The position numbers were made by a program, and so were the translations under genes. From an uncultured Spirochaetota bacterium (lineage in GTDB: Bacteria > Spirochaetota > Brevinematia > Brevinematales > JAOACQ01): a stretch of 64,000 nt of DNA. The notes below the pieces were generated by a model. The model did no database searches. It worked only from the letters and a program-made list of their open reading frames with translations, and was not told where the DNA came from. Positions 51,158-64,000 of this stretch are shown piece after piece. Positions within the stretch are counted from its first letter, which is position 1. Each line of letters opens with the position of its first letter. The stretch spans positions 448,001 through 512,000 of the forward strand of contig CAWAOD010000009.1 of the NCBI GenBank assembly GCA_963783575.1, given 5' to 3'.

Positions 51158-52528
51158 ATGAGTTTTCCTAAAAATTTTGTATGGGGCGCCGCCACGGCGG
51201 CTTACCAGATCGAGGGAGCAACAGAGGAAGATGGCCGGGGAATGTCTGTCTGGGATATGTTCTGCAGAAAACCGGGGGCTGTCTATGGAGAATATTCCGG
51301 CGATCCTGCCTGCGATCATTATCACCGCTACCGCGAAGATGTTGAAATAATGAAGGAAATCGGCTTGTCTGCTTACAGGTTGTCAGTTTCCTGGCCGAGG
51401 ATATTGCCTTCGGGAACAGGTTCAATAAACAGGAAAGGCCTTGATTTTTACAACAAACTGATCGACGCACTTCTTGAAGCGGGCATTGTTCCATATGTCA
51501 CACTGTTTCACTGGGATTTACCTTATGAACTTTACTGCAGAGGCGGATGGCTCAGTACGGAAAGTCCGGACTGGTTTGCTGAATTCACCAGGATTGTTGT
51601 TGAAAGCCTATCGGACAGGGTCAGGAACTGGTTTACTTTTAATGAGCCAAGCTGTGTAATTAATCTTGGGTATCTTGAAGGGGTGCACGCTCCCGGCGAT
51701 AAGCTCGGTTTCGCGCAGGCGGCAAGGGCGATGCATAATATCCTGCTTTCACATGGAAAGTCGGTCCGGACGATCCGGGAAATTTCAAAATCAAAAAGCC
51801 TTGTCGGATTCGCACCTTCGGTAAAAATTTGTATCCCAGCTACTATAAGCAGTGAGGACATAGACGCTTCAAGAAAAGAAATGTTTTCATCGGGAAGAAA
51901 AAGCCTGTGGGAGAATTCCTTCTGGATGGACCCGATTTTTGAAGGGCATTATCCCGGTGATTACCTGGATGTTTTAGGCAGCGATGCCCCCGAGGTTAAA
52001 CAGGATGATATGAAAACTATCTGCCAGCCGCTGGATTTTTTCGGATTTAACTGTTACAGATGCGACACATACCGAGCCGGAACAAACGGTGAGCCTGAAA
52101 TAGAGCCGTATCATATGGGTTATCCCCATACGGCTTTTAAGGATGGTGATTACTGGCAGGTAACACCGGAAATAATTTACTGGGGAGCAAAATTTTTTTA
52201 TGAGCGCTACCATTTGCCAATATTCATAACAGAAAACGGGATGTCAAACACAGATTTGATATCACTTGACGGGAAAGTGCACGATCCTCAAAGAATAGAC
52301 TTTTTATCGAGGTATCTAATAATGCTCCACCAAGCGGTAGTTGAAGGAGTTGATGTGAGGGGATATTTCCTCTGGTCAATAATGGATAACTTCGAATGGG
52401 CGGAATCCTACCGCCAGCGTTTCGGTATAGTGTACGTGGATTATCCCACACAAAAACGTATACTCAAAGATTCCGCTCACTGGTATAAGGGAGTGATAGC
52501 CTCAAACGGGGCAAATATATTAATCTAA
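51158..52528 (+). CDS. GH1 beta-glucosidase
   Basis: WGAATAAYQIEG, DHYHRY.ED, TFNEP, ITENG, WS.MDNFEW. Confidence 0.92.
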   Translation: MSFPKNFVWGAATAAYQIEGATEEDGRGMSVWDMFCRKPGAVYGEYSGDPACDHYHRYREDVEIMKEIGLSAYRLSVSWPRILPSGTGSINRKGLDFYNKLIDALLEAGIVPYVTLFHWDLPYELYCRGGWLSTESPDWFAEFTRIVVESLSDRVRNWFTFNEPSCVINLGYLEGVHAPGDKLGFAQAARAMHNILLSHGKSVRTIREISKSKSLVGFAPSVKICIPATISSEDIDASRKEMFSSGRKSLWENSFWMDPIFEGHYPGDYLDVLGSDAPEVKQDDMKTICQPLDFFGFNCYRCDTYRAGTNGEPEIEPYHMGYPHTAFKDGDYWQVTPEIIYWGAKFFYERYHLPIFITENGMSNTDLISLDGKVHDPQRIDFLSRYLIMLHQAVVEGVDVRGYFLWSIMDNFEWAESYRQRFGIVYVDYPTQKRILKDSAHWYKGVIASNGANILI

Positions 52529-52580
52529 ATTGGGCAATTTTCAAAATTTATTCAATCATCAATGCTAATACTTCGCATTA

Positions 52581-52662
52581 TCAGTTGGTTAATTGGTTAG
52601 TCTTTTAGACAATTAGTATTTTATTTCGATATGACTAGCCGACCAACAGACTTTCGACTGAA
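52581..52662. repeat. Facing arrays of degenerate 8-bp repeats between convergent genes
   Basis: tcagttgg ttaattgg ttagtctt ttagacaa ttagtatt ... gactagcc gaccaaca gactttc gactgaa; GGTTAGTC pairs with GACTAGCC. Confidence 0.55.
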
Positions 52663-52729
52663 AATATATAAGGAAATGTATTGTTATCAATTAGACTATT
52701 ATATAAGAATTAGTTAGGATTTAAATAAA

Positions 52730-53698
52730 TTAGGGGATTTCGACGGTATTTAAAATATCCTCAATAACCTTTTCGGTTGTTATTCCTTCGGCTTCTGCCT
52801 CAAAACTCAGAATTATCCTGTGCCGTAAAATTTCATAAGCGACAAGTTTTATATCCTCGGGAATCACATAGCCGCGTCCGTCGAAAAAGGCCTCACAGCG
52901 TGCTGCTTTTATAAAATTAATAGAAGCCCTGGGTGAAGCGCCGTATTTAACATAGCCTTTCTCGAAATTCCGTGTTGCAAAAACAATATTTACTACATAA
53001 TCATATATTTTCTCGTCAACATAAATCCTTTCTACAAATTTTTGGAGATTAATAATTTCATCTTTCGAAGCGACTGTTTTCGGTTCAGGGGAAAACATCC
53101 CGCTCATCCGGTGGATTATACGTTTTTCCTCTTTCTGATTCGGGTAATCTACGAAAACCTTCATGTAAAAACGGTCTGTCTGAGCCTCGGGCAGAGGGTA
53201 AGTCCCCTCCTGTTCGATTGGATTCTGGGTTGCCATAACAAAAAAAGGATCGGGAAGCTGATATGTAGTTTCACCGATAGTTGCCGTTTTTTCCTGCATA
53301 GATTCAAGAAGCGCTGATTGTACTTTGGATGGAGCCCTGTTTATTTCATCGGCAAGGATAAAATTTGTAAATACCGGTCCCTTTTTAATCTCAAAACTTC
53401 CGTTATGCTGGTTATAAATCAAAGTTCCCCTGATATCCGCAGGAAGCATATCCGGAGTAAACTGGATCCTTTTAAAGTCAACTTCCAAAATTCTGGCAAG
53501 AGTTCTGATTGAGAGTGTTTTTGCAAGACCCGGTACCCCTTCAAGTAAAATATGCCCGCCTGATATAATAGCCGATATCATTTTATTCAAGAGGTTGTCC
53601 TGCCCGACAATTACCTTCTGAAACTCCGCTTTAATTCTTTCGATTATTTTAACCTGTTCGGCCGCTTCTTCGGTCAATTTTTTAATCTCATCATCCAT
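52730..53698 (-). CDS. moxR: MoxR-family AAA+ ATPase
   Basis: GHILLEGVPGLAKT, RIQFTPD.LP.D, LADEINRA..KVQSALLE, ATQNP.EQEGTYPLPEAQ.DRF, GASPRA. Confidence 0.9.
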   Translation of the reverse strand: MDDEIKKLTEEAAEQVKIIERIKAEFQKVIVGQDNLLNKMISAIISGGHILLEGVPGLAKTLSIRTLARILEVDFKRIQFTPDMLPADIRGTLIYNQHNGSFEIKKGPVFTNFILADEINRAPSKVQSALLESMQEKTATIGETTYQLPDPFFVMATQNPIEQEGTYPLPEAQTDRFYMKVFVDYPNQKEEKRIIHRMSGMFSPEPKTVASKDEIINLQKFVERIYVDEKIYDYVVNIVFATRNFEKGYVKYGASPRASINFIKAARCEAFFDGRGYVIPEDIKLVAYEILRHRIILSFEAEAEGITTEKVIEDILNTVEIP

Positions 53699-53854
53699 TC
53701 TCAAGCTCCTGTAAAATTATAATGATTATTATTTTATACTCTGTTGTTTTTTTTTGCAAAAATGCAGTGACCTGAAAAATTATTGTCTGGCATAGGATTC
53801 GGCACCCCGTCTTAAGTTGGGGGTTGCGTTGGATTGAACTTTTAACCGCCGAAA

Positions 53855-55426
53855 TCAGAACCTGAATACTAATTCCATTTCACCGAAGGGTCCGCTGAAA
53901 TTAACCGGCAGGGTGCTCTGGGTATTCCCATCAACAGTAAGATTGACGACACTTGTTGTTCCAACGCTTACCGAGGTTGTATTTTTTGAGTCACTGGAAT
54001 CGGTATATGTTATACTGAAGTTCGGAAGTAGATAAAGGGCGTATCCCCCTGTAATCCTTAGCTTCATGCGCTGATTGAATTGATAGCTGAATGAGAGCCT
54101 GGGTTTTATCCCTACAGTAACGCCGCTTAAATCTACGCTAATATTATTACTGAATGATGTATTGTTAATTGTTATTTGTGACGAATTATTGATTACACCG
54201 AGAGACTCGCTTAAACCTATGATAGATAAATCAGCTCCAATAACAAAACTCATGTTCCATAAGTAAAATTCATATCCGCCCCCAAGCTGTCCATAAAAAG
54301 CAAACGGGTTGTTAAATAAAATACCGCCGCTTAAATCCACAAGCCCCGCGTAGCCCAATTCATATTCACCCTCAATGCCGAATGTCGGTACATAAGAGGA
54401 CGGCGACATAGTTCCGGAATTGGTAAAGACAGTTTTGGAATCTGAAGTTGAGGATATTATGGTGAAATTTTTACCAGTTACTGCCATTGGAAGAGCCCCG
54501 GCAAAGACATTAAAGCGGCCACCAAGCATCGGGAGTTCAAGCAGCTGGTCGCCGACTTCCGGCTTTCCGAATATAGTAGATGCGACTGACCATTGTTCCC
54601 CGATTTCTTTAACCCGGAGAATACCTGTATTAACTTTCTCAGTGAATTTATTTAATATTTTTGTTTCTTTCTGAATGGCAAACTCATAACCCGGGCGGAC
54701 TCCAAGGTCCTTACCAAGCTCAATATATACTCCCTTCGGATTGATTTCAAGAACCTGTGTCTTGATTTTAAACTCTTCTACATTACGTAAAAAGAAGCCT
54801 AATCCTGAAATCGCGTCATCAACCCCCTTCTGATAAGCATCAATTGAGCTTGTCCGTGATGTTTGCGCGCTTGAAGCGTTATAAGTATCAAGCAGATTAC
54901 CTTCCGCAGTAATTATCTTGACCGAAATATTGACATTAACCTTATATTCCTTAACAAGACGGATCACAATCTTACCGTCAGAGCGAGTTTCCTTAACTTC
55001 AACCTGATATTCTTCAACACTATATCCGTTTATTGAAGGCATAAAAATAAAAAACGCATTAACAAGTTTCTGCATCTCTGCCGCTGGAATAACCGTGATG
55101 CCAAGATCGGCGTCTATATATTGGGGATTTGTAACAATCGCTTCTTTTTTTAATTCCTGGATTTTTTTAATGAATTCATCGGCAGAACGGTTATCAAGAT
55201 GATATTGATAACCGATTACCTGAAACCGTTTCATCCCGCTTAAAAGCCCGATCAATTTGTCATCGAAATACTGATGGGCTGAATCAGGAATTTCATAAGC
55301 CGAATAAACGGGAAATACCGCTATTTCATTTTTTTTTGAAACTTCAGCTACGGCAAATAGCTTCTCAGCCCTTACTCCGGAAATAATAAATAATCCGATG
55401 ATAAAAACTATATATAAATTTCTCAC
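53855..55426 (-). CDS. Exported protein, CsgG/FlgT-like N-terminal part and probable C-terminal beta-barrel
   Basis: GTG start 55426 with AGGGGG; signal peptide; YIELG...GV..G.EF; terminal VFRF. Confidence 0.55.
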   Translation of the reverse strand: MRNLYIVFIIGLFIISGVRAEKLFAVAEVSKKNEIAVFPVYSAYEIPDSAHQYFDDKLIGLLSGMKRFQVIGYQYHLDNRSADEFIKKIQELKKEAIVTNPQYIDADLGITVIPAAEMQKLVNAFFIFMPSINGYSVEEYQVEVKETRSDGKIVIRLVKEYKVNVNISVKIITAEGNLLDTYNASSAQTSRTSSIDAYQKGVDDAISGLGFFLRNVEEFKIKTQVLEINPKGVYIELGKDLGVRPGYEFAIQKETKILNKFTEKVNTGILRVKEIGEQWSVASTIFGKPEVGDQLLELPMLGGRFNVFAGALPMAVTGKNFTIISSTSDSKTVFTNSGTMSPSSYVPTFGIEGEYELGYAGLVDLSGGILFNNPFAFYGQLGGGYEFYLWNMSFVIGADLSIIGLSESLGVINNSSQITINNTSFSNNISVDLSGVTVGIKPRLSFSYQFNQRMKLRITGGYALYLLPNFSITYTDSSDSKNTTSVSVGTTSVVNLTVDGNTQSTLPVNFSGPFGEMELVFRF

Positions 55427-55627
55427 AATATCCCCCTGAAAAAAATAATTTCTCAAAGTAACTTTAAACCATAACCGTTTCTTGAGTATAACATGATTTA
55501 TATTGAATTTCAAGATTATAAAAACAGGATTTAATCTTATTCCGGCCAACTCAAAGAAATTTTTTCCTTTTCAAAGCATGACCTATGAATATATTTTATT
55601 TTAACCATTAAGAAAAAACAAAAATCG

Positions 55628-55654
55628 TTTAGTTTTTTTTTGCTGATCCGATAT
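55628..55654 (+). promoter_or_regulatory. sigma28 (FliA) promoter of the flgN operon
   Basis: TTTAGTTT-N11-TCCGATAT versus consensus TAAAGTTT-N11-GCCGATAA. Confidence 0.7.
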
Positions 55655-55662
55655 ACATAAAA

Positions 55663-55696
55663 GAACAAGGATGTTTATTCTATACCAAGGAGGGTA
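55663..55696 (+). promoter_or_regulatory. Two CsrA-type GGA hairpin sites in the flgN leader
   Basis: ACAAGGATGT (55665-55674) in GAACA-AGGA-TGTTT hairpin; TACC-AAGGAG-GGTA hairpin (55683-55696) containing the Shine-Dalgarno. Confidence 0.65.
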
Positions 55697-55699
55697 ATT

Positions 55700-56215
55700 A
55701 TGGAAGAAAGCATTATGAATCACATGAAAACATTTAAGGATTTGCTTTCTCATGAGGCTGATGCCTTATCATACCTGGAGAAGCTTGAGAATCAAAAGTT
55801 TGACGCGCTTAAACAGGTTGATATCAAAAAGTTGATGCGCATCAATTCCGATGAGGAGGAAATGCTGCACAAGCTTGAAGTTATTGAAAAGAAGAGGAAA
55901 AATCTTATTCTTCTCCTTTCAGAAGCTTTCAGTTTTGATCCCTGTGTTTCACTTTCCGAGCTTTTTACCTACCTTCCCGATGAAGAATATAAATCATATA
56001 AAAATGAGTTATCTGAACTGAGAAATACTATAAAGGGATTTACCGAAAAATTGCAAGTCACGATGCATGAAAATTCGGAAATGATAAGAACAAATCTCGA
56101 TATCATAAACCTGACGCTTAATTTTGCAAATCGGAATTCCCAGAAAGAGACATACGGATACCGGGATAAAAAAGAAAGCCGTGAAAATATTTACCTGGTT
56201 AATCAAATAGCGTAA
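55700..56215 (+). CDS. flgN: Flagellar export chaperone FlgN
   Basis: Helical 171-aa protein, E..R and N..MI...L pattern, TY near the C-terminus; immediately upstream of flgK. Confidence 0.75.
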   Translation: MEESIMNHMKTFKDLLSHEADALSYLEKLENQKFDALKQVDIKKLMRINSDEEEMLHKLEVIEKKRKNLILLLSEAFSFDPCVSLSELFTYLPDEEYKSYKNELSELRNTIKGFTEKLQVTMHENSEMIRTNLDIINLTLNFANRNSQKETYGYRDKKESRENIYLVNQIA

Positions 56216-56307
56216 TAATCGCTGGCTTTTAGCAGTTTTATAAGATAAATAATTGTGGGTCAAGCCTCGGGCTTTACCGTGCCGATGGCACGTTTTAGGA
56301 GAAAAGA

Positions 56308-58209
56308 ATGCTTTCAACATTTCATGGGATTGAAGTCGGGAAAAAAGGACTGATGGCAAACAATATGGGCCTTGATACTACGGGCCATAACCTGTCAAAT
56401 ATAGATACCGAAGGTTATTCCCGCCAGAAAGTAAATCTTACAGCGACAAGCCCACTTTACGAACCGGGCGCAAACCGCGTTGAAATGGCAGGCCAGATCG
56501 GTACAGGTGTTGCCGTTGAGGATATTCAACGGGTCCGGGACCAGGCGATAGACGACCGTATCAATTTCGAGAAAGGCGGGCTTGGATTCTGGGGGATGAA
56601 ACAGCAGTTTCTGCACCAGATTGAAATGATTCAGAATGAGCCTGGAAAGCCGAATATCCGCACTGTAATGGATGAATACTGGGAAAGCTGGCAGAAGGTC
56701 GCCTCAGATCCGACGGAAAGGGCTTCCCGTGAAGAACTTGTTCAGCGAACTCAGGCAATGACTGAAACTTTTAACCACAGCTTCAATTCTTTGTATGACT
56801 TAAGAAAAAACGCGGATAATCTTGTGGATCAGAGGATCAATGAAATAAACAACATGGCATCGGAAATTGCGAATCTCAACCTGCAGATAGTTAAGTCTGA
56901 AGCTATGGGCGACAAGCCGAACGATCTTTACGACAGAAGGGATTTGCTGGTCGATAAACTCGCGAAGAATGTAGATATACGTGTTGAAAGGAACAATAAG
57001 CATGAACTGATTGTTTACATTGGTATGGAAAATCTTGTCCAGGGGGACCTTGTCAATAAAATCAATGGCGTCGGAAATACGGGGAATGACGGTTTTCTCG
57101 ATGTGAAATGGAGGGACGGAAGGTCTGTGGCTCTTGGGAATGGCGAATTGGCGGGGCTTGTTTCCGCAAGGGACGACGATATCAAAATAGCTATACAAAA
57201 TATAGATTCCTTATCAGCCAATATTGTGGATTCCACAAATGAAATTCATAAGGATGGATTTGGGTTGAATATGACAACCGATAATAAATTTTTTAAAGAA
57301 ATGTCGGTAACGCCTTATGCTAATGGTGACTATGATTTTAATAATAACGGCATTCCTAACGGGACGGCAATTTTCAAGGTAAGCGGAACCGAAAAAATTG
57401 ATGAAAATACAGTGATCGGAAACGGCGGATTTCTTAATTTCGGTCCGGCAGTACCCGGGGGAAATGATATAACTATCCAGTATAACTCAATTGATAAAGT
57501 AAAAGATGTGATCGATAAAATAAATCAATCCGATGCCGGAGTCTCTGCTTATTTAAATCAAAGAGGCCAGTTGTCATTCAAAGCAAAATACCCTTCCGAC
57601 GACAGGTTTCATCCGTTTGTCATCCGGCATATTGAAGATAGCGGAAATTTCCTTGTCGGAATAGCCGGTCTGCTCCATCAATCCGGGGCACAGGGCGCTT
57701 TTGATTACAGAACAGCGGGTAATCTTGTAAAATTCAATGTACCCGGTTTTAATGTGACATTTACTCCCGAAAATCATCCATCGGTATGGATGGCGCTGGA
57801 CGATAAAATAAAGTCCAACCCCGATTCTATTGCAGCCGCGGGTGCCATTGATACAGCAGGGGATGGAAAACCTGACCGAGTCAACGGCCTTGGTGACAAC
57901 AGAAACGCGCTGGCTATAGCCGAATTAAGAAATAAAAAAATCATGGTGGAAAGTTCTTCCACATTCGGTGAATTTACAAAGGCCATGGTAGGCGATTTCG
58001 GGACGCGTTCGGAATCGGCCAAGGTAAATATGGATAAAAATCAGGCTGTGGTCGACAGTCTTGTGAATTTAAGAAAAGAGATCAGCGGAGTTAACGTTGA
58101 TGAAGAAATGACAAAAATGATCATGTTCCAGCATGGTTATAACGCATCTGCGAGGCTGGTTTCGACAATTGATAGAATGATTGAAACAGTAATAAGGATG
58201 GGAGCGTAA
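56308..58209 (+). CDS. flgK: Flagellar hook-associated protein FlgK
   Basis: TTGHNLSN..TEGYSRQ, G.GV....I.RVRD, PNDL.D.RD.L, SGVNVDEEM..M..FQ..YNASAR. Confidence 0.95.
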   Translation: MLSTFHGIEVGKKGLMANNMGLDTTGHNLSNIDTEGYSRQKVNLTATSPLYEPGANRVEMAGQIGTGVAVEDIQRVRDQAIDDRINFEKGGLGFWGMKQQFLHQIEMIQNEPGKPNIRTVMDEYWESWQKVASDPTERASREELVQRTQAMTETFNHSFNSLYDLRKNADNLVDQRINEINNMASEIANLNLQIVKSEAMGDKPNDLYDRRDLLVDKLAKNVDIRVERNNKHELIVYIGMENLVQGDLVNKINGVGNTGNDGFLDVKWRDGRSVALGNGELAGLVSARDDDIKIAIQNIDSLSANIVDSTNEIHKDGFGLNMTTDNKFFKEMSVTPYANGDYDFNNNGIPNGTAIFKVSGTEKIDENTVIGNGGFLNFGPAVPGGNDITIQYNSIDKVKDVIDKINQSDAGVSAYLNQRGQLSFKAKYPSDDRFHPFVIRHIEDSGNFLVGIAGLLHQSGAQGAFDYRTAGNLVKFNVPGFNVTFTPENHPSVWMALDDKIKSNPDSIAAAGAIDTAGDGKPDRVNGLGDNRNALAIAELRNKKIMVESSSTFGEFTKAMVGDFGTRSESAKVNMDKNQAVVDSLVNLRKEISGVNVDEEMTKMIMFQHGYNASARLVSTIDRMIETVIRMGA

Positions 58210-58210
58210 G

Positions 58211-58245
58211 ATAGTCTCTAGTTGTTAGGCTCTAGTCGCTAGGTG
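58211..58245. repeat. Left heptamer array of the four-helix-bundle cassette
   Basis: atagtct ctagttg ttaggct ctagtcg ctaggtg, starting just after the flgK stop. Confidence 0.75.
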
Positions 58246-58421
58246 AGGATTGACAAGGAGCTAGAGAAAATAATGAGAAGTTATAAGACTTATTGGTTTG
58301 GAAAAAATCGATAGAACTGGTAAAATTGATTTATGAAATTACAAAAAAATTTCCGGACAATGAGAAATTCGGTTTATTCAATCAAATGAGAAGGGCAGCT
58401 GTTTCGATGCCCTTGAATATA

Positions 58422-60112
58422 CAGACTGTGTGAAAACACAGTAAATATGCTATAATTATTAGAACAAAAATAATCGGAGTAAAAGATGAAGCATATTGAG
58501 GGAGAATCAAGGGATCAGATAGTTCTGTTCAATGAAACACTGGAAGATCTGTTAGGAGAAGAAGATCCGGTAAGGTTTATAGATATTTTTGTTGATAAGC
58601 TAAATATGAAAGGAGTTGGTTTTAAAGTAAAAGAAGCATCAACCGGCAGAAGTTCATATAAATCCGAAATACTTTTAAAAATCTATATTTACGGATATTT
58701 GAATAAAATCAGGACAAGCAGGAAATTAGAGAGAGAGTGCCGAAGAAACACAGAGTTGATGTGGCTGACTGGACGACTAGCGCCGGATTTCAAGACGATT
58801 GCCGACTTCAGGAAAGATAATAAGAAGGGAATACAGTCGATATTCAGAGAATTTTTGAAGATATGTCATAAAGCCGGGCTTTTATCATTTGACGTTGTTG
58901 GAATTGATGGAACCAAGATCAGTGCGCAAAACCACAATAACAATGTTTATCATAGGAAAAACATAGAAGAAATCATACATAGAATAGATCAAAAGATCGA
59001 AGAATATTTGAATGAGATGGATAAGAACGATAAGGAAGAAAAGAATGAATTTGAATTTCTTTCCGGAAAGATAGCGGAACGTTTTAAAAAATTGAAAACA
59101 AAAAAGGATAAAGTTGAGGCTATTAAAAAGATTTTTGAGGGAAATCCTGAAATGGAGAAATATTATTCAAATGACCCGGAAAGCCGGTTTATGAATGATA
59201 AAGGGAAATCCGACATTGCATATAATCTGCAGATGGCAGTAGATGATGCGAATAAACTGATTGTGGTGATTGATGTGACGAATGAAAACAATGATATCAA
59301 ACAGATGGCAGGAATGTGTGACCGAGTAGAAGAAATAAAGGACGAGCTTAAGGTAGAGACTGAAACGGTCAAAGTATCGGATGCCGGTTATTACAGCGAA
59401 CCGCAGATACTGGAATGTATAGATAAGGGACATAACGTATATATGCCGAATCCGGATGACGGACATAAGGCAAGGATTCGAGGCAAAGAAGATAATAAAG
59501 GAGTACCTGCTGAAGAATACCAGGTTGATAAATTCAAATATGATCCGGGACAAAATGTTTATTATTGTCCGGAGGGAAACCAATTAGTGAGAAATGGGAA
59601 AAAAGTAGAGAAGGTCAATGGAGGAAAAGAGATAGTCAGGTACAAGTGCGGCTTATGCAGCCAATGTGAAGTAAGAAATAAGTGTACTGAAAGCGTGGAA
59701 GGACGAAGTATCAAAGTACCAGTTAGAAAAGAAGAAATTGAGAACTTCAAGAGGAAAATTCGTTCTGAAGCCGGGAAAAAGATCATAGAGAAAAGGAAAG
59801 AGATATGTGAACATCCATTTGGATCGATAAAAAGGAATATGGGTTACAGTTATTTTTTAATGAAGGGAAAGGATGGCGTTCTGACGGAATCCAGTTTGGC
59901 AGGATTCATTCATAATTTAATAAAAGTATTGAATATATTGGGAATAAAGAGACTTATGACTCTGGTTTGATGCTAATAAACCATCGTTTATCGTTTTCGG
60001 ATAGATTTTTTAAACTAAGATTTTTTTAGCTTGAAAAATATATCAAAAAATGGAGTTTTTGTATAATTAATCGATTTTACTATAAAATTTTACTGAGTTT
60101 TCACACAGCCTG
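58422..60112 (+). mobile_element. IS1182-family insertion sequence, 1691 bp
   Basis: 24-bp terminal IRs CAG(A/G)CTGTGTGAAAAC(A/T)CAGTAAA with 2 mismatches; 3-bp target duplication ATA (58419-58421 and 60113-60115). Confidence 0.92.
58486..59970 (+). CDS. IS1182-family DDE transposase
   Basis: GR..Y...LLK.Y.YGY...I.TSR.LE, WL.G.LAPDFKTIADFR, IDGTK, YN.Q, DAGY, Y.CP.G, C..C...CT, EH.FG.IK. Confidence 0.92.
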   Translation: MKHIEGESRDQIVLFNETLEDLLGEEDPVRFIDIFVDKLNMKGVGFKVKEASTGRSSYKSEILLKIYIYGYLNKIRTSRKLERECRRNTELMWLTGRLAPDFKTIADFRKDNKKGIQSIFREFLKICHKAGLLSFDVVGIDGTKISAQNHNNNVYHRKNIEEIIHRIDQKIEEYLNEMDKNDKEEKNEFEFLSGKIAERFKKLKTKKDKVEAIKKIFEGNPEMEKYYSNDPESRFMNDKGKSDIAYNLQMAVDDANKLIVVIDVTNENNDIKQMAGMCDRVEEIKDELKVETETVKVSDAGYYSEPQILECIDKGHNVYMPNPDDGHKARIRGKEDNKGVPAEEYQVDKFKYDPGQNVYYCPEGNQLVRNGKKVEKVNGGKEIVRYKCGLCSQCEVRNKCTESVEGRSIKVPVRKEEIENFKRKIRSEAGKKIIEKRKEICEHPFGSIKRNMGYSYFLMKGKDGVLTESSLAGFIHNLIKVLNILGIKRLMTLV

Positions 60113-60314
60113 ATAGCTGAAGGGAAATCAAGAAATACAAATAAGGAATTCTTACAGTTTCTTTATATTACAAGAGGATCATCAGCGGAAGTTGAAACAA
60201 GTTATTTTTATCTAAAGAAATTGGATTCATAGAAGAAAAAGATTATCTTATAATTTCATCACAATGTGAGGAAGTTGGAAAGTTATTGAGTGGTTTAATT
60301 AATTCAATATCAAA

Positions 60315-60357
60315 TAAGTCGCTAGTTGCTAGTCACTAATCTTTAGCTAGCGACTAT
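60315..60357. repeat. Right heptamer array of the four-helix-bundle cassette
   Basis: taagtcg ctagttg ctagtca ctaatct ttag ctagcga ctat; CTAGCGACTA (60347-60356) is the reverse complement of TAGTCGCTAG (58233-58242). Confidence 0.75.
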
Positions 60358-60368
60358 ACGGAGGTTTT

Positions 60369-61619
60369 ATGATAGGTAGAATAACACAGGGATACATGGT
60401 TAATGATTTTAATTCCAATTTAAATGCAAGGGAATCCGACTTGCAGAATGTCCAGAAACAGCTTTCAAGCGGATACAGGGTCAATCTTCCAAGTGAAGAT
60501 CCTGTTGCGGCCATCAATTATATGGATTATGACAGCAGGCTGAAAGAAATAGGTACATATAAAAACATTGTAAATACAATGAAAAGTAAAATCGATCTGA
60601 CTGATTCCGCTCTGGACAATGCGACATCAATCATACAAAGACTTCGTGAACTGGCGGTCCAGGGAGCAAACGGGACTTACACAAAAGAAGACAGGACAAA
60701 TATGGCGACTGAAGTTGATCAGCTTCTGAGAGAATTGCTACAGATCGCCAACTCAAATTACAAGGGGAACGCTCTTTTCGGTGGGACAATGACCGATGAG
60801 ACCCCGTTTAAAGCCAATATTCAAATGAACAGGGAAACGGGCCAGGAGTTTCTGGAGGATGTTCGTTATATTGGCAATAATCAGACCCAGATTTCAGAAG
60901 TAGACAGAGGAGAAAAGGTTGAAGTTACTCAGCCGGGAAACCAGGTGTTCTGGGCAGATAATATGACAATAAATTCAACTTTATCCGTTTCCGGATATAC
61001 CGCACCTTCGGACTCAAAAATATTAGTGGATGGAGTCGAGGTTGCAATTAATGCAGGGGATAATCTGGATGTAATAGCCAATAAAATAAATCATTCGGGC
61101 GCAGCAGTGAGCGCTACAATTATGACTGAAAACGGAGCGAGCTATTTCACCCTCGAATCAACATCGCCGCATCAAATTTCGCTTATGGACTATGAAGGAA
61201 GTTCAGTTCTGCAGGATTTAGGCATGGTTGATCATGGAATGTATCCTCCCTATAATTATTCTCCTGCTGCCAGAGTATACACGGGCAGCATTTTCGATGT
61301 GATGATCGGATTCAGAAAATCACTTCAGAAAGATGATACCTTCCAGATTGGAGGAACGGCCCTTGCCGGGATAGATAACTCGCTGTCAAACATTCTTAAA
61401 TTCAGGGCGCATATTGGCTCTGTTTCTCAAAGGCTTGACACGATTACTGAAAGATTTATGAGCGATGAAACTTACCTTACAGATGCAAAGCAGAATTCCA
61501 TAGGGACCGATATAGCAAAGGCTATGATGGAGTTGAAAATGTTTGAATTTTCCCATGATATTGCACTTAATATAGGCGCAAGGATTTTGCCCAAGACTTT
61601 GCTTGATTTTCTTCGTTGA
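60369..61619 (+). CDS. flgL: Flagellar hook-associated protein FlgL
   Basis: LSSG.RV..PS.DPVAA, RELAVQGANGTY, LFGG, TLLDFLR. Confidence 0.93.
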   Translation: MIGRITQGYMVNDFNSNLNARESDLQNVQKQLSSGYRVNLPSEDPVAAINYMDYDSRLKEIGTYKNIVNTMKSKIDLTDSALDNATSIIQRLRELAVQGANGTYTKEDRTNMATEVDQLLRELLQIANSNYKGNALFGGTMTDETPFKANIQMNRETGQEFLEDVRYIGNNQTQISEVDRGEKVEVTQPGNQVFWADNMTINSTLSVSGYTAPSDSKILVDGVEVAINAGDNLDVIANKINHSGAAVSATIMTENGASYFTLESTSPHQISLMDYEGSSVLQDLGMVDHGMYPPYNYSPAARVYTGSIFDVMIGFRKSLQKDDTFQIGGTALAGIDNSLSNILKFRAHIGSVSQRLDTITERFMSDETYLTDAKQNSIGTDIAKAMMELKMFEFSHDIALNIGARILPKTLLDFLR

Positions 61620-61726
61620 TAGATTTATATAAGAATAAATAATTATTAAATTTTTGTCTGTTAATAAAATAAATAAGTGAAAACCTTGAAAAATTTCTGT
61701 AAAGATACTAAATTATTAGGGTAAAA

Positions 61727-62206
61727 ATGGAGGCACCTGTGGAAACGATTAAGACCAAAGCTTACGGAGAGATTACTGTTGCAGAGGACAGTGCGATCTA
61801 TTTTAAAAGGGAGATTCTCGGTTTTGAGAACAACCGTTACTATTATTTAATCGAGATGGGAGATCTACCGAATTTTTATTGGCTGCAGTCGAAAGAAGAG
61901 CCTGAATTGGCTTTTATTGTCGTAAATCCAAGGCTTTTTATTTCAAATTACATTTTGAACATAGATGATATTGATATTGGCCTTCTGGAATTGGATGAAG
62001 GCGATGAAATGGTTGATTTCGCAATCGTTAATATTCCAGAAGACATCAATAAAATGACGATGAACCTTTTGGGACCTATAGTAATCAATGTTAAGAAGAG
62101 GATTGCTATACAGGGAATATCAACAAATAATGAATACGGGACAAAAGTTCTTATTTTTAGCGCAGAAAATGAAGCGTTTCAAAAAGAACAGGCAAAAGCG
62201 GGATAA
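61727..62206 (+). CDS. fliW: Flagellar assembly factor FliW
   Basis: I.F...ILGFE, F.WLQS...PELAF.V.NP, T.NLLGP.VIN. Confidence 0.9.
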   Translation: MEAPVETIKTKAYGEITVAEDSAIYFKREILGFENNRYYYLIEMGDLPNFYWLQSKEEPELAFIVVNPRLFISNYILNIDDIDIGLLELDEGDEMVDFAIVNIPEDINKMTMNLLGPIVINVKKRIAIQGISTNNEYGTKVLIFSAENEAFQKEQAKAG

Positions 62207-62230
62207 AAATTTAATCGGGGAGAAAAAAAA

Positions 62231-62467
62231 GTGCTGGTTTTATCAAGAAAAGAAGATGAATCCATTATTATAAATGATAATATTGAAATAAAAATAATAG
62301 GTATCAAACAAGATCAGGTAAAAATTGGCATTGTTGCCCCAAAAGATGTTAAAATATTCAGGAAGGAAATTTATGAGGAAATTCAAAAAGCAAATATTGC
62401 CGCCGCCGGAACTACTTTGAAAATTGGCGATCTAAAGGATGCTTTATCCAAAAAGGAAAATAAATAA
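62231..62467 (+). CDS. csrA: Carbon storage regulator CsrA
   Basis: MLVLSRK.DESI.I.D.I.I......QVKIGI.AP..V.I.R.EIY. Confidence 0.95.
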   Translation: MLVLSRKEDESIIINDNIEIKIIGIKQDQVKIGIVAPKDVKIFRKEIYEEIQKANIAAAGTTLKIGDLKDALSKKENK

Positions 62468-62476
62468 GGGGGTAAT

Positions 62477-62698
62477 ATGATCAGCAGGGAAAAAATGGAA
62501 ATGCTTAAGTACTATAATAAAGGATTGGATCTTTACAGGAATAGAAAATTTACAGAAGCCAGGGATTTATTCCGGAAATGCCTGGAACTTGTTCCCGATG
62601 ACGGCCCCTCGCAGATATATATTGAAAGATGCGATGTATTTATTTCTTCACCGCCTCCTGAGGATTGGGACGGTGTTTTTGTTATGACAAGTAAATAA
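62477..62698 (+). CDS. Small stand-alone TPR protein resembling the C-terminal tail of class III nucleotide cyclases
   Basis: Y..GL.LY....F..A...F...L...P.DGPS..YI.RC.....PP.DWDGV.....K. Confidence 0.65.
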   Translation: MISREKMEMLKYYNKGLDLYRNRKFTEARDLFRKCLELVPDDGPSQIYIERCDVFISSPPPEDWDGVFVMTSK

Positions 62699-62714
62699 TT
62701 TAAGGAGTTCTTTT

Positions 62715-63071
62715 ATGCCTCAAAATATTGATCCTTACAGGGATTATCCCACAACCACAACACTCAGCGGTACGACTTTATTCGATGGAGTTATGAAGTT
62801 TAAAAATTCTTTACGAATAAACGGAGATTATAACGGCAAGGTGGATGCTATAGGTATTCTTGTTTTAGGACCCGCCTCAAAACTTAAGGGTGATATTGTC
62901 TGTGATGAAGTGATAATAGGCGGAGAGGTCCACGGGAATGTATACGCACGTAAAAGACTTGAATTGCTTGAAACTGCTAAACTTTACGGCGATATTAAAA
63001 CAACGAAACTTAAAATTGCCGATGGTGTTGTTTTTGAAGGTAAATGCGAAATGCTTCAGACAAAACAATAA
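62715..63071 (+). CDS. Bactofilin (polymer-forming cytoskeletal protein)
   Basis: LRING...G, G.V.GN..A...LEL...A.L.GDI.T..L.I..G..FEG.C.M. Confidence 0.85.
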   Translation: MPQNIDPYRDYPTTTTLSGTTLFDGVMKFKNSLRINGDYNGKVDAIGILVLGPASKLKGDIVCDEVIIGGEVHGNVYARKRLELLETAKLYGDIKTTKLKIADGVVFEGKCEMLQTKQ

Positions 63072-63178
63072 AACCGTTTAACTTATTGACAGAATGCTAT
63101 TTTGTATTTAAAATGTCTGTTGAATTAAAATATAATTTGAATGATTCTGACTGCTGTTAATTGAAAAGGAGAGTAAAT

Positions 63179-63517
63179 ATGGTGGATGTAACAAAAAAGG
63201 GTGATGTAGTTTTACTGAAAGTGTCAGGCAGGCTGGAGATAAACCAGGCTCTTGAACTGGAAGAAATTATAAATAATCATATAAATAACGGCAGTAAATA
63301 TTTTGTATTCGATCTGGGCGACGTACATTACCTGAGCAGCAGCGGGATACGTGTTTTTATAGCTACATTAAGGCAGTTGAAGGATTTAAAAGGGAGAATG
63401 ATTCTAAGTAATTTAAGTTCGAATGTTATTAAAACCCTGAAGATCGTGGAACTTGACGGTCTTTTTGAAATTATCAACAATGCCGATGATGCAGTGAAGG
63501 TAATGAAGCCCGAATGA
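63179..63517 (+). CDS. STAS-domain anti-sigma factor antagonist
   Basis: SGRL, DL..V.YLSSSGIRV; likely start ATG 63179 (AGGAG); TTGACA-N17-TAAAAT at 63086-63114. Confidence 0.85.
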   Translation: MVDVTKKGDVVLLKVSGRLEINQALELEEIINNHINNGSKYFVFDLGDVHYLSSSGIRVFIATLRQLKDLKGRMILSNLSSNVIKTLKIVELDGLFEIINNADDAVKVMKPE

Positions 63518-63927
63518 GTTATCGTTTTCTGATGGCGCTCACCGGTTTAATAATCGTAGTGGGTTCCGGATCGATGTGGCTGTATTATAATATTTTATTA
63601 AAAAAGAAGTTACTGCAAAACCTTCTTTCCCTGCCTAAGGGAAGAAGGTTTTTTTGGTATAGGCTCAGAAAAAGCGGTTTTGAAGTAATTTCGCAAAATC
63701 TCTTCAAAAAATATTCTCTTTGCGTGGGCGGAGTAGTAAAAAGCTATTCACTTAAAGCGGATTTTCTTGTAAAAAGAAAAGGTAAAAGATATATTGGACT
63801 TTATGCCGGCGAACTTGAAGAAAAAGAGTTTCTTATGCTTTTTTTTTCTTACAGCAGGGTTTTCCATACCCATGGCGTTATTTTTTACAATGATATTTTA
63901 AGAAAATTTATTCTTTGGGAAGTCTGA
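63514..63927 (+). CDS. Hypothetical protein with N-terminal TM helix
   Basis: ATGA overlap with the STAS gene; L...GF.V, ADFLV pattern. Confidence 0.55.
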   Translation: MSYRFLMALTGLIIVVGSGSMWLYYNILLKKKLLQNLLSLPKGRRFFWYRLRKSGFEVISQNLFKKYSLCVGGVVKSYSLKADFLVKRKGKRYIGLYAGELEEKEFLMLFFSYSRVFHTHGVIFYNDILRKFILWEV

Positions 63928-63928
63928 T

Positions 63929-64000
63929 ATGCAGAATATTGCCCTTCTTGGAGCGACAGGTTCTGTAGGAAAATCTGTTCTTGATGTTATAAGGAATTAC
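63929..64000 (+). CDS. dxr: 1-deoxy-D-xylulose 5-phosphate reductoisomerase, N-terminus only
   Basis: MQNIALLGATGSVGKSVLDVIRNY matches the Dxr LG.TGS.G...LDV start. Confidence 0.75.
   Translation, partial: MQNIALLGATGSVGKSVLDVIRNY

Follow-up and report, generated by a model that had tools for sequence, protein, structure and literature searches.

The gap between flgK and flgL in the window analyzed here (a 64,000-nucleotide stretch of an uncultured Spirochaetota genome) holds a four-helix-bundle pseudogene of the TIGR02436 family, framed by two inverted arrays of 7-base units and interrupted by an IS1182-family element (Table 1). The locus is real; it is neither a chance arrangement nor an ordinary flagellar feature. 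In the preferred reading, toward which the balance tilts modestly, a widespread kind of insert, made up of a gene and its repeats, has left a broken copy here; its arms are predicted to pair, and its product likely binds those arms as a pentamer and likely sustains the spread of the repeats. The TIGR02436 gene is likely the partner of a known class of bacterial heptamer repeats, possibly giving a single answer to two puzzles: what this very large protein family does, and why bacterial genomes have an excess of 7-base repeats. The Coxiella intervening sequence (IVS) and the Xanthomonas repeats are already in print as separate parts; no link between the gene and the dispersed repeats was found in the openly accessible literature. 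To these parts, the locus adds empty orthologous sites, decay intermediates, and the repeated use of the same junctions, with different heptamers, within a single bacterial family.

Table 1. Features of the flgK-flgL junction (positions in the window)
Feature	Position	Strand	Remarks
flgK, host gene upstream	56308..58209	+	ORF; TIGR02492, E 1.3e-98
Left arm, five TAG-N4 units at period 7	58212..58246	+	Starts 2 nt past the flgK stop
Left strand of the predicted long-range stem	58234..58267	+	Partner 60319-60355; P 0.9-1.0 for most pairs when folded without the IS
Likely ribosome-binding site of the cassette gene, AAGGAG	58255-58260	+	Inside the predicted stem
Four-helix-bundle pseudogene, 5' piece	58273..58421	+	Frameshift near 58286; Ser of SNIAEG replaced by Leu
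IS1182-family element	58422..60112	+	24-nt terminal inverted repeats; 3-nt target duplication 58419-58421 / 60113-60115
IS1182 transposase (within the IS)	58486-59970		347 bits vs cut-off of 270
Four-helix-bundle pseudogene, 3' piece	60113..60339	+	Frameshift near 60202; last frame enters the right arm, stop at 60337-60339
Right arm, inverted heptamer array, five minus-strand TAG-N4 units	60317..60356	+	One phase break; local hairpin possible
flgL ribosome-binding site, GGAGG	60360..60364	+	3 nt beyond the right arm; may pair instead with 58230-58233, P about 0.5
flgL, host gene downstream	60369..61619	+	ORF; TIGR02550, E 2.8e-83

Without the IS, 465 nt separate the flgK stop from the flgL start, in agreement with the roughly 460 bp given in an earlier sequence-only reading of this DNA. 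The five in-register 7-bp repeats described there on the left are also present. Their unit, however, is TAG-N4 and not the CTAG heptamer proposed, as a C precedes only 3 of the 5 left units. The matching array claimed for the right side does consist of inverted heptamers, but these are mixed, with three in-register units, a 4-nt phase break, and two more units. Also confirmed is the perfect inverted match of 10 bp (58233-58242 / 60347-60356), which can be lengthened to 19 nt at 84%. None of 200,000 shuffles of the 63-nt flank reproduces five TAGs at period 7, and the whole genome contains seven such runs, all at arrays of the TAG-N4 type. CTAG is the most under-represented tetramer of this genome (0.60 of expectation). 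Provision of stops in all three frames was rejected as a purpose of the TAG units, since many heptamers of the family contain no stop codon.

The claim of one four-helix-bundle gene in the cassette is correct as to the family. Three coding pieces match TIGR02436 (E values of 1.6e-13, 6.3e-8, and 1.9e-3), two of them with profile scores of 50.8 and 32.8 bits against a cut-off of 24 for TIGR02436/PF05635, and the third with 18.4 bits. As to the gene itself the claim fails, for this is a pseudogene even after removal of the IS: the reading frame is also broken by two one-base frameshifts, and the SNIAEG motif has a Leu in place of the Ser found in 35 of 35 aligned homologues. Assembly errors are an unlikely cause of the frameshifts, as all 31 near-full IS copies keep their ORF; these copies show 2 gap openings in 52,373 aligned bases. 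The pseudogene is the sole TIGR02436 match detected in the genome, the assembly of which is 89.85% complete. Since this copy is dead, it is a marker of the system and is unsuitable for a binding assay; it appears to be midway in decay toward a gene-less hairpin or a single arm.

The IS1182 copy is a secondary intruder. The element is present in 31 near-full copies genome-wide, 22 of them with a 3-nt duplication, and its target is almost always one palindromic repeat. Its insertion into the cassette gene (58409-58421 / 60113-60124) is likely explained by the resemblance of the SNIAEG codons to that target. About eight copies have non-matching flanks, suggesting recombination between copies. At this locus, the 1.7-kb element might exert a polar effect on flgL and fliW.

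The IS-free insert is predicted to fold with a stem of about 30 pairs, so that complementary terminal arms would make a long stem, as they do in 23S IVSs. The arm duplex has an energy of -31.8 kcal/mol, compared with -20.9 +/- 3.6 in shuffles, 12 of 2,000 of which are as good. This stem encloses the likely ribosome-binding site of the cassette gene, ends 3 nt short of that of flgL, and is retained in the minimum-energy fold with the IS in place; the right arm also has a competing local hairpin (-17.8 kcal/mol, z -2.5). At this locus, the sense strand folds better (-112 vs -76). Base pairing of the arms in the transcript, as put forward in the sequence-only reading, is therefore predicted as far as the pairing goes, and the stem would have the flgL ribosome-binding site at its base. 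A preference for RNA over single-stranded DNA is unsupported, as the sense strand pairs better in only 34 of 76 loci, and a G-U bias, considered as a sign of RNA-level selection, is absent family-wide.

Promoter and terminator scans gave counts at chance level (8 vs 9.1 and 1 vs 0.9, respectively); a promoter-like 10-of-12 match at 60226-60254 comes from such a chance-level scan. The insert is apparently promoterless and would ride on host transcripts. Its stem would seal it off, so that the stop codon and ribosome-binding site of the host stay usable, and might be a substrate of RNase III, like that of the Coxiella IVS; the genome contains an RNase III gene. An intron-like cassette, excised from the mRNA with rejoining of the flgK and flgL message, would agree with arms that meet at the foot of the insert. 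The known IVS is not known to undergo ligation after RNase III cleavage. Because the insert lies between a stop codon and a ribosome-binding site, no rejoining is needed, and the known IVS is cut by RNase III (PMC4990558), which makes excision of this kind very unlikely.

The sequence-only reading regarded the gene and its arrays as a discrete, transposase-less unit, rather than as a stably syntenic resident of this junction, and the comparison with relatives agrees. In a search of 40 relatives, none of the 29 orthologous flgK-flgL junctions among the matches listed holds a TIGR02436 gene, and 26 of these 29 have gaps of 9 to 37 nt. The remaining ones contain a single gene-less heptamer arm (G011), a gene-less inverted pair (G002), and an unrelated hairpin. 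In the flgK-flgL gap of G010 (L005), 81 nt of unrelated sequence are inserted, including a short direct repeat and a hairpin. The empty alleles are too diverged for defining a target duplication at the cassette ends. The gene is found in 8 of 41 relatives and in 27 of 151 genomes of the phylum, as a single copy in each relative carrying it, and the relatives' copies occupy unrelated sites, such as rRNA spacers, CRISPR arrays, and other operons. Inverted heptamer arms can be made out by eye at all six of these copies that have both flanks, and a seventh ends at a contig edge. A phylum-wide gene site between flgK and flgL was rejected, as 0 of 16 scored same-phylum loci adjoin either gene.

Several junctions are used repeatedly. 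Between flgK and flgL, arrays are found in 3 of 11 family genomes (G000, G002, and G011), which do not form a clade and have empty sisters. The rpoN junction is used in 2 of 12 genomes, the gap before tRNA-Trp (downstream of a gene that we take to be rpmG) is filled in 5 of 9 syntenic genomes, and the flhB-flhA junction is filled in 1 of 11. Such reuse, the single copy of the gene in each carrying relative, and the finding that 83% of the Xanthomonas repeats have the same context in two species (PMC4692102) all favor a reading in which the arrays serve the host in RNA processing or stability (as RNase III sites or hairpins) at junctions of strongly expressed operons, are rewritten in place, and are bound by the protein as an autoregulator. 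This reading is rather unlikely, given that the gene is patchy, changes its site, and decays, that the flgK-flgL carriers are scattered among empty sisters, and that flhB-flhA is filled just once.

With respect to the preferred reading of a gene-plus-repeat insert, the heptamer follows the resident gene and not host kinship. In all 7 scored cases, the gene-less junction arrays best match the cassette arms of their own genome. These cases include G001, which has another subfamily of the gene and another heptamer at the same junction within the same genus. The matches of the G000 and G011 arrays are weak because their heptamers overlap (0.37 vs 0.30 and 0.23 vs 0.21), whereas the G001 and G002 contrasts are clear.

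A search profile built solely from the ten units of the window arms gives 20 matches genome-wide: the two arms themselves and 18 gene-less sites (controls gave 1, 3, and 5). Because the same arrays lie without the gene at 18 further sites, the arms are not merely cassette ends. Fourteen of the 18 start within -14 to +10 nt of a stop codon, 2 end just ahead of a ribosome-binding site, and many gene-less sites in the genome are hairpins; dispersed intergenic period-7 arrays near stops, many of them in inverted pairs, are likewise the mark of the Xanthomonas and Nostoc type. G002 and G011 have gene-less heptamer sets of their own, in at least 16 and at least 17 regions, respectively. Period-7 arrays of non-window units, possibly from earlier cassettes, are seen at G000:C11:535870, C14:361526, and C18:201662.

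RAYT genes occur one per genome, framed by the same inverted repeat. The layout of REPIN-RAYT, with one repeat-flanked gene and many extragenic doublets (PMC3337134), resembles the present one, in which inverted doublets are also scattered between genes. Accordingly, the arrays might belong to a REP/REPIN-like DNA system, with gene-less hairpins moved as single-stranded DNA by a distant transposase or recombination function and the four-helix-bundle protein serving as guide or cargo; equal pairing of both strands and the existence of array-rich genomes without the gene point the same way. We consider this improbable: the framed gene encodes an all-helical four-helix bundle with no HUH or DDE fold, unlike the HUH tyrosine transposase RAYT, and no transposase is seen with the cassette. 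The arms are tandem 7-mers, not single palindromes, and the spacers appear to vary, with hairpin loops of a few to about 150 nt that differ in length and, by eye, otherwise.

As part of the preferred mechanism, inserts would collapse to gene-less hairpins or single arms. G008 has a collapse intermediate between 23S and 5S, consisting of both arms and, between them, just the C-terminal third of the gene (E 9.6e-7); the G008 array matches the arms of G001 and not visibly its own remnant. With this sole exception, no gene remnants were found at the protein level among about 55 gene-less sites, and 1 of 9 hairpin loops of G002 resembles the gene, at a marginal z of 3.8. Since loops and sites rarely resemble the gene, collapse is unsupported as the main source of the gene-less arrays. 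No gene was detected in the array-rich genomes G013, G017, G019, and G022, nor was a diverged one found in G013, G017, and G022. The assembled 23S-5S spacers of G017 and G019 lack it, and missing rRNA operons (no 5S found) may excuse its absence from G013 and G022. G009 and G021 contain the gene and have almost no arrays by the pattern used. The many heptamer arrays of G013 (L326-L334), G017, and G022 often form same-direction tandem pairs about 120 nt apart.

Flanking periodic inverted arrays, which the sequence-only reading expected around other four-helix-bundle genes, are indeed a family trait, with period 7 on both sides in 77 of 144 TIGR02436 loci. This set (166 loci less 22 dropped) adds metagenome and relatives' loci to 75 genome loci with full flanks (80 less 5 dropped), of which 46 have period 7 on both sides. 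The corresponding counts are 11 of 29 non-redundant viral-contig loci (from 46) and 10 of 16 same-phylum loci. Among the 144 loci, period 8 is found in at most 8 and periods 5, 6, and 10 in none; arms are absent at the threshold used in 67. The own arms are the best pairing partners in 30 of 46 loci, with a mean of -40.6 kcal/mol compared to -15.8 kcal/mol for cross-pairs. Upstream arms are G-rich in 38 of 46 loci and downstream arms C-rich in 36 of 46. One unit position, following a purine, is G at a frequency of 0.91, the register having been fitted to maximize this value. With heuristic ORFs, low-GC loci have co-oriented neighbor genes in 25 of 28 and 24 of 28 cases, and the array starts within -17 to +6 nt of the upstream stop in 20 of 25.

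The number of units peaks at five, which is seen in 58 of 138 arms (42%) as against 11-17% in geometric-length simulations. A consensus-free count gives 37 and 42 of 144, and the independent viral set gives 28 of 58 arms; under a strict 5-of-7 match, the modal number is four. In the upstream arm of L034 (G011), a 14-nt repeat (two units, inverted orientation) has expanded by slippage to about nine tandem copies. Slippage has been proposed for the heptamer excess (PMC4692102), and the loci studied also contain period-7 windows at a distance from the gene (62 of 1,605), both of which could fit arrays that are slippage-born simple repeats unrelated to the gene. That origin is largely refuted by the inverted, locus-matched arms around the gene in many phyla, the five-unit peak, and the heptamer following the gene, and we regard it as highly improbable.

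TIGR02436 is a large family, with at least 7,991 matches among 8,000 candidates scored. An intact homologue from G011, with 72 of 114 residues identical to the window's pieces, was used for structural modeling. The model has four helices (pLDDT 97.6) and is close to the solved structures 2GSC (Xcc0516; TM 0.94) and 2RLD (BT_0352; TM 0.83), both of them five-chain entries, suggesting by analogy that the cassette protein is a pentamer. The usual five units per arm would match the pentameric ring of these homologues. The similarity to Avd is at a TM of about 0.8 with 14-16% identity. The Avd pentamer binds its stem-loop through all five protomers, with flipped bases in the crevices between them (bioRxiv 2023.10.23.563531). 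By the same token, the cassette pentamer might read five purine-G units, one per subunit crevice, with flipped-out bases as in Avd.

The residue after AEG in the SNIAEG motif provides the top two of 612 column-by-base associations (z 6.1 and 5.7, unadjusted for phylogeny). It is Lys in the intact homologue of G011 and Tyr in that of G002. Where this residue is Tyr or Trp, unit position 4 is G in 10 of 10 cases, compared with 7 of 59 otherwise. This covariation comprises only 1 independent contrast on supported branches (4 of 66 branches starred), and the viral set gave one miss and three sub-threshold hits.

No HUH, DDE, or other catalytic fold is found in the all-helical model, and because the cassette protein has no catalytic domain, the mover must be an external enzyme. 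A first guess for such a borrowed enzyme, by analogy with Avd, would be a reverse transcriptase (RT) acting in trans. The genome has 7 RT matches; no RT ORF lies in positions 52000-64000, and the nearest RT match on the contig is over 300 kb away. The preferred reading can be extended, tentatively, to a transposase-less selfish element. Here, an Avd-like pentamer would count and read the five 7-base units, with the residue after AEG helping to set the base code, and the borrowed enzyme would write gene-bearing and gene-less hairpins into strongly transcribed junctions that are reused by each new invader. The heptamer repeats of Xanthomonas and others, as well as ORF-bearing rRNA IVSs, might derive from such an element, itself possibly a sister of the Avd of diversity-generating retroelements (DGRs).

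Among known systems, the Coxiella burnetii IVS contains the same gene, heptamers, and a 28-bp stem that RNase III cleaves in vitro (Warrier et al. 2016, PMC4990558). According to the accessible part of that report, it shares with the cassette the protein family, complementary terminal arms, a decaying ORF, a ribosome-binding site in the stem, and heptamers upstream of the ORF. The stem at flgK-flgL is of similar predicted length, about 30 pairs. In contrast to the 23S IVS, the cassette lies between protein genes and not inside a 23S rRNA gene. RNase III cleavage is a feature of the Coxiella IVS, whereas the cassette is known from sequence and fold prediction. In its accessible part, the Coxiella paper places heptamers only 5' of the ORF and makes no tie to genome-wide arrays (PMC4990558).

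The intergenic heptamer repeats of Xanthomonas (GGGAATC) and Nostoc are gene-less arrays for which the accessible text of Rehm et al. (2015, PMC4692102) names no partner gene. Like the arrays studied here, they are intergenic, on the coding strand near stops, and in inverted pairs, with a C-rich arm before start codons and conserved sites. They are reported with four units and read as G-quadruplexes, whereas the TAG-N4 units contain no G-run. Row 27 of supplement 2 lists a GGGAATC array 6 nt past the bccP stop that overlaps the beginning of XCC0516, which encodes the pentamer of solved structure; as far as the source is accessible, XCC0516 is absent from the main text, and the supplement gives no downstream arm (PMC4692102).

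Avd has the same fold as the cassette protein, and its pentamer binds a specific RNA stem-loop of about 27 nt (bioRxiv 2023.10.23.563531, PMC6182149). A DGR has an RT and repeats next to avd; unlike it, the cassette has no RT or target gene beside it, and the Avd model scores 21 on the 5' piece against a cut-off of 80. The family has been noted in cas loci (PMC3936711) and near DGRs (PMC10053308) in the accessible parts of these papers. No paper linking a TIGR02436 gene to dispersed heptamer arrays was found in the openly accessible literature, subscription journals being outside this scope. The cassette works like an rRNA IVS moved into mRNA and like a REP system without a transposase, and is a member of neither.

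Some of the sites occupied in relatives have further peculiarities. In L035 (G004), L037 (G021), and L039 (G009), the cassette resembles a giant spacer that ends CRISPR-like repeats or lies between them, and G009 appears to have tandem cassettes with a degenerate repeat between them. Decayed tRNA-Trp-like 5' copies stand in tandem before the tRNA-Trp gene in L372-L374 (G004, G009, and G007). The rRNA operons in L036 (G001), L038 (G025), L244/L245 (G008), and L216/L221 (G011) carry cassettes, a truncated cassette, or single arms in the spacers that follow tRNA-Ala or separate 23S from 5S. L444 (G019) and L038 (G025), from the same genus, are 23S-5S spacers with common flanks, with the cassette in L038 and a different, 52-nt insert at the same point in L444.
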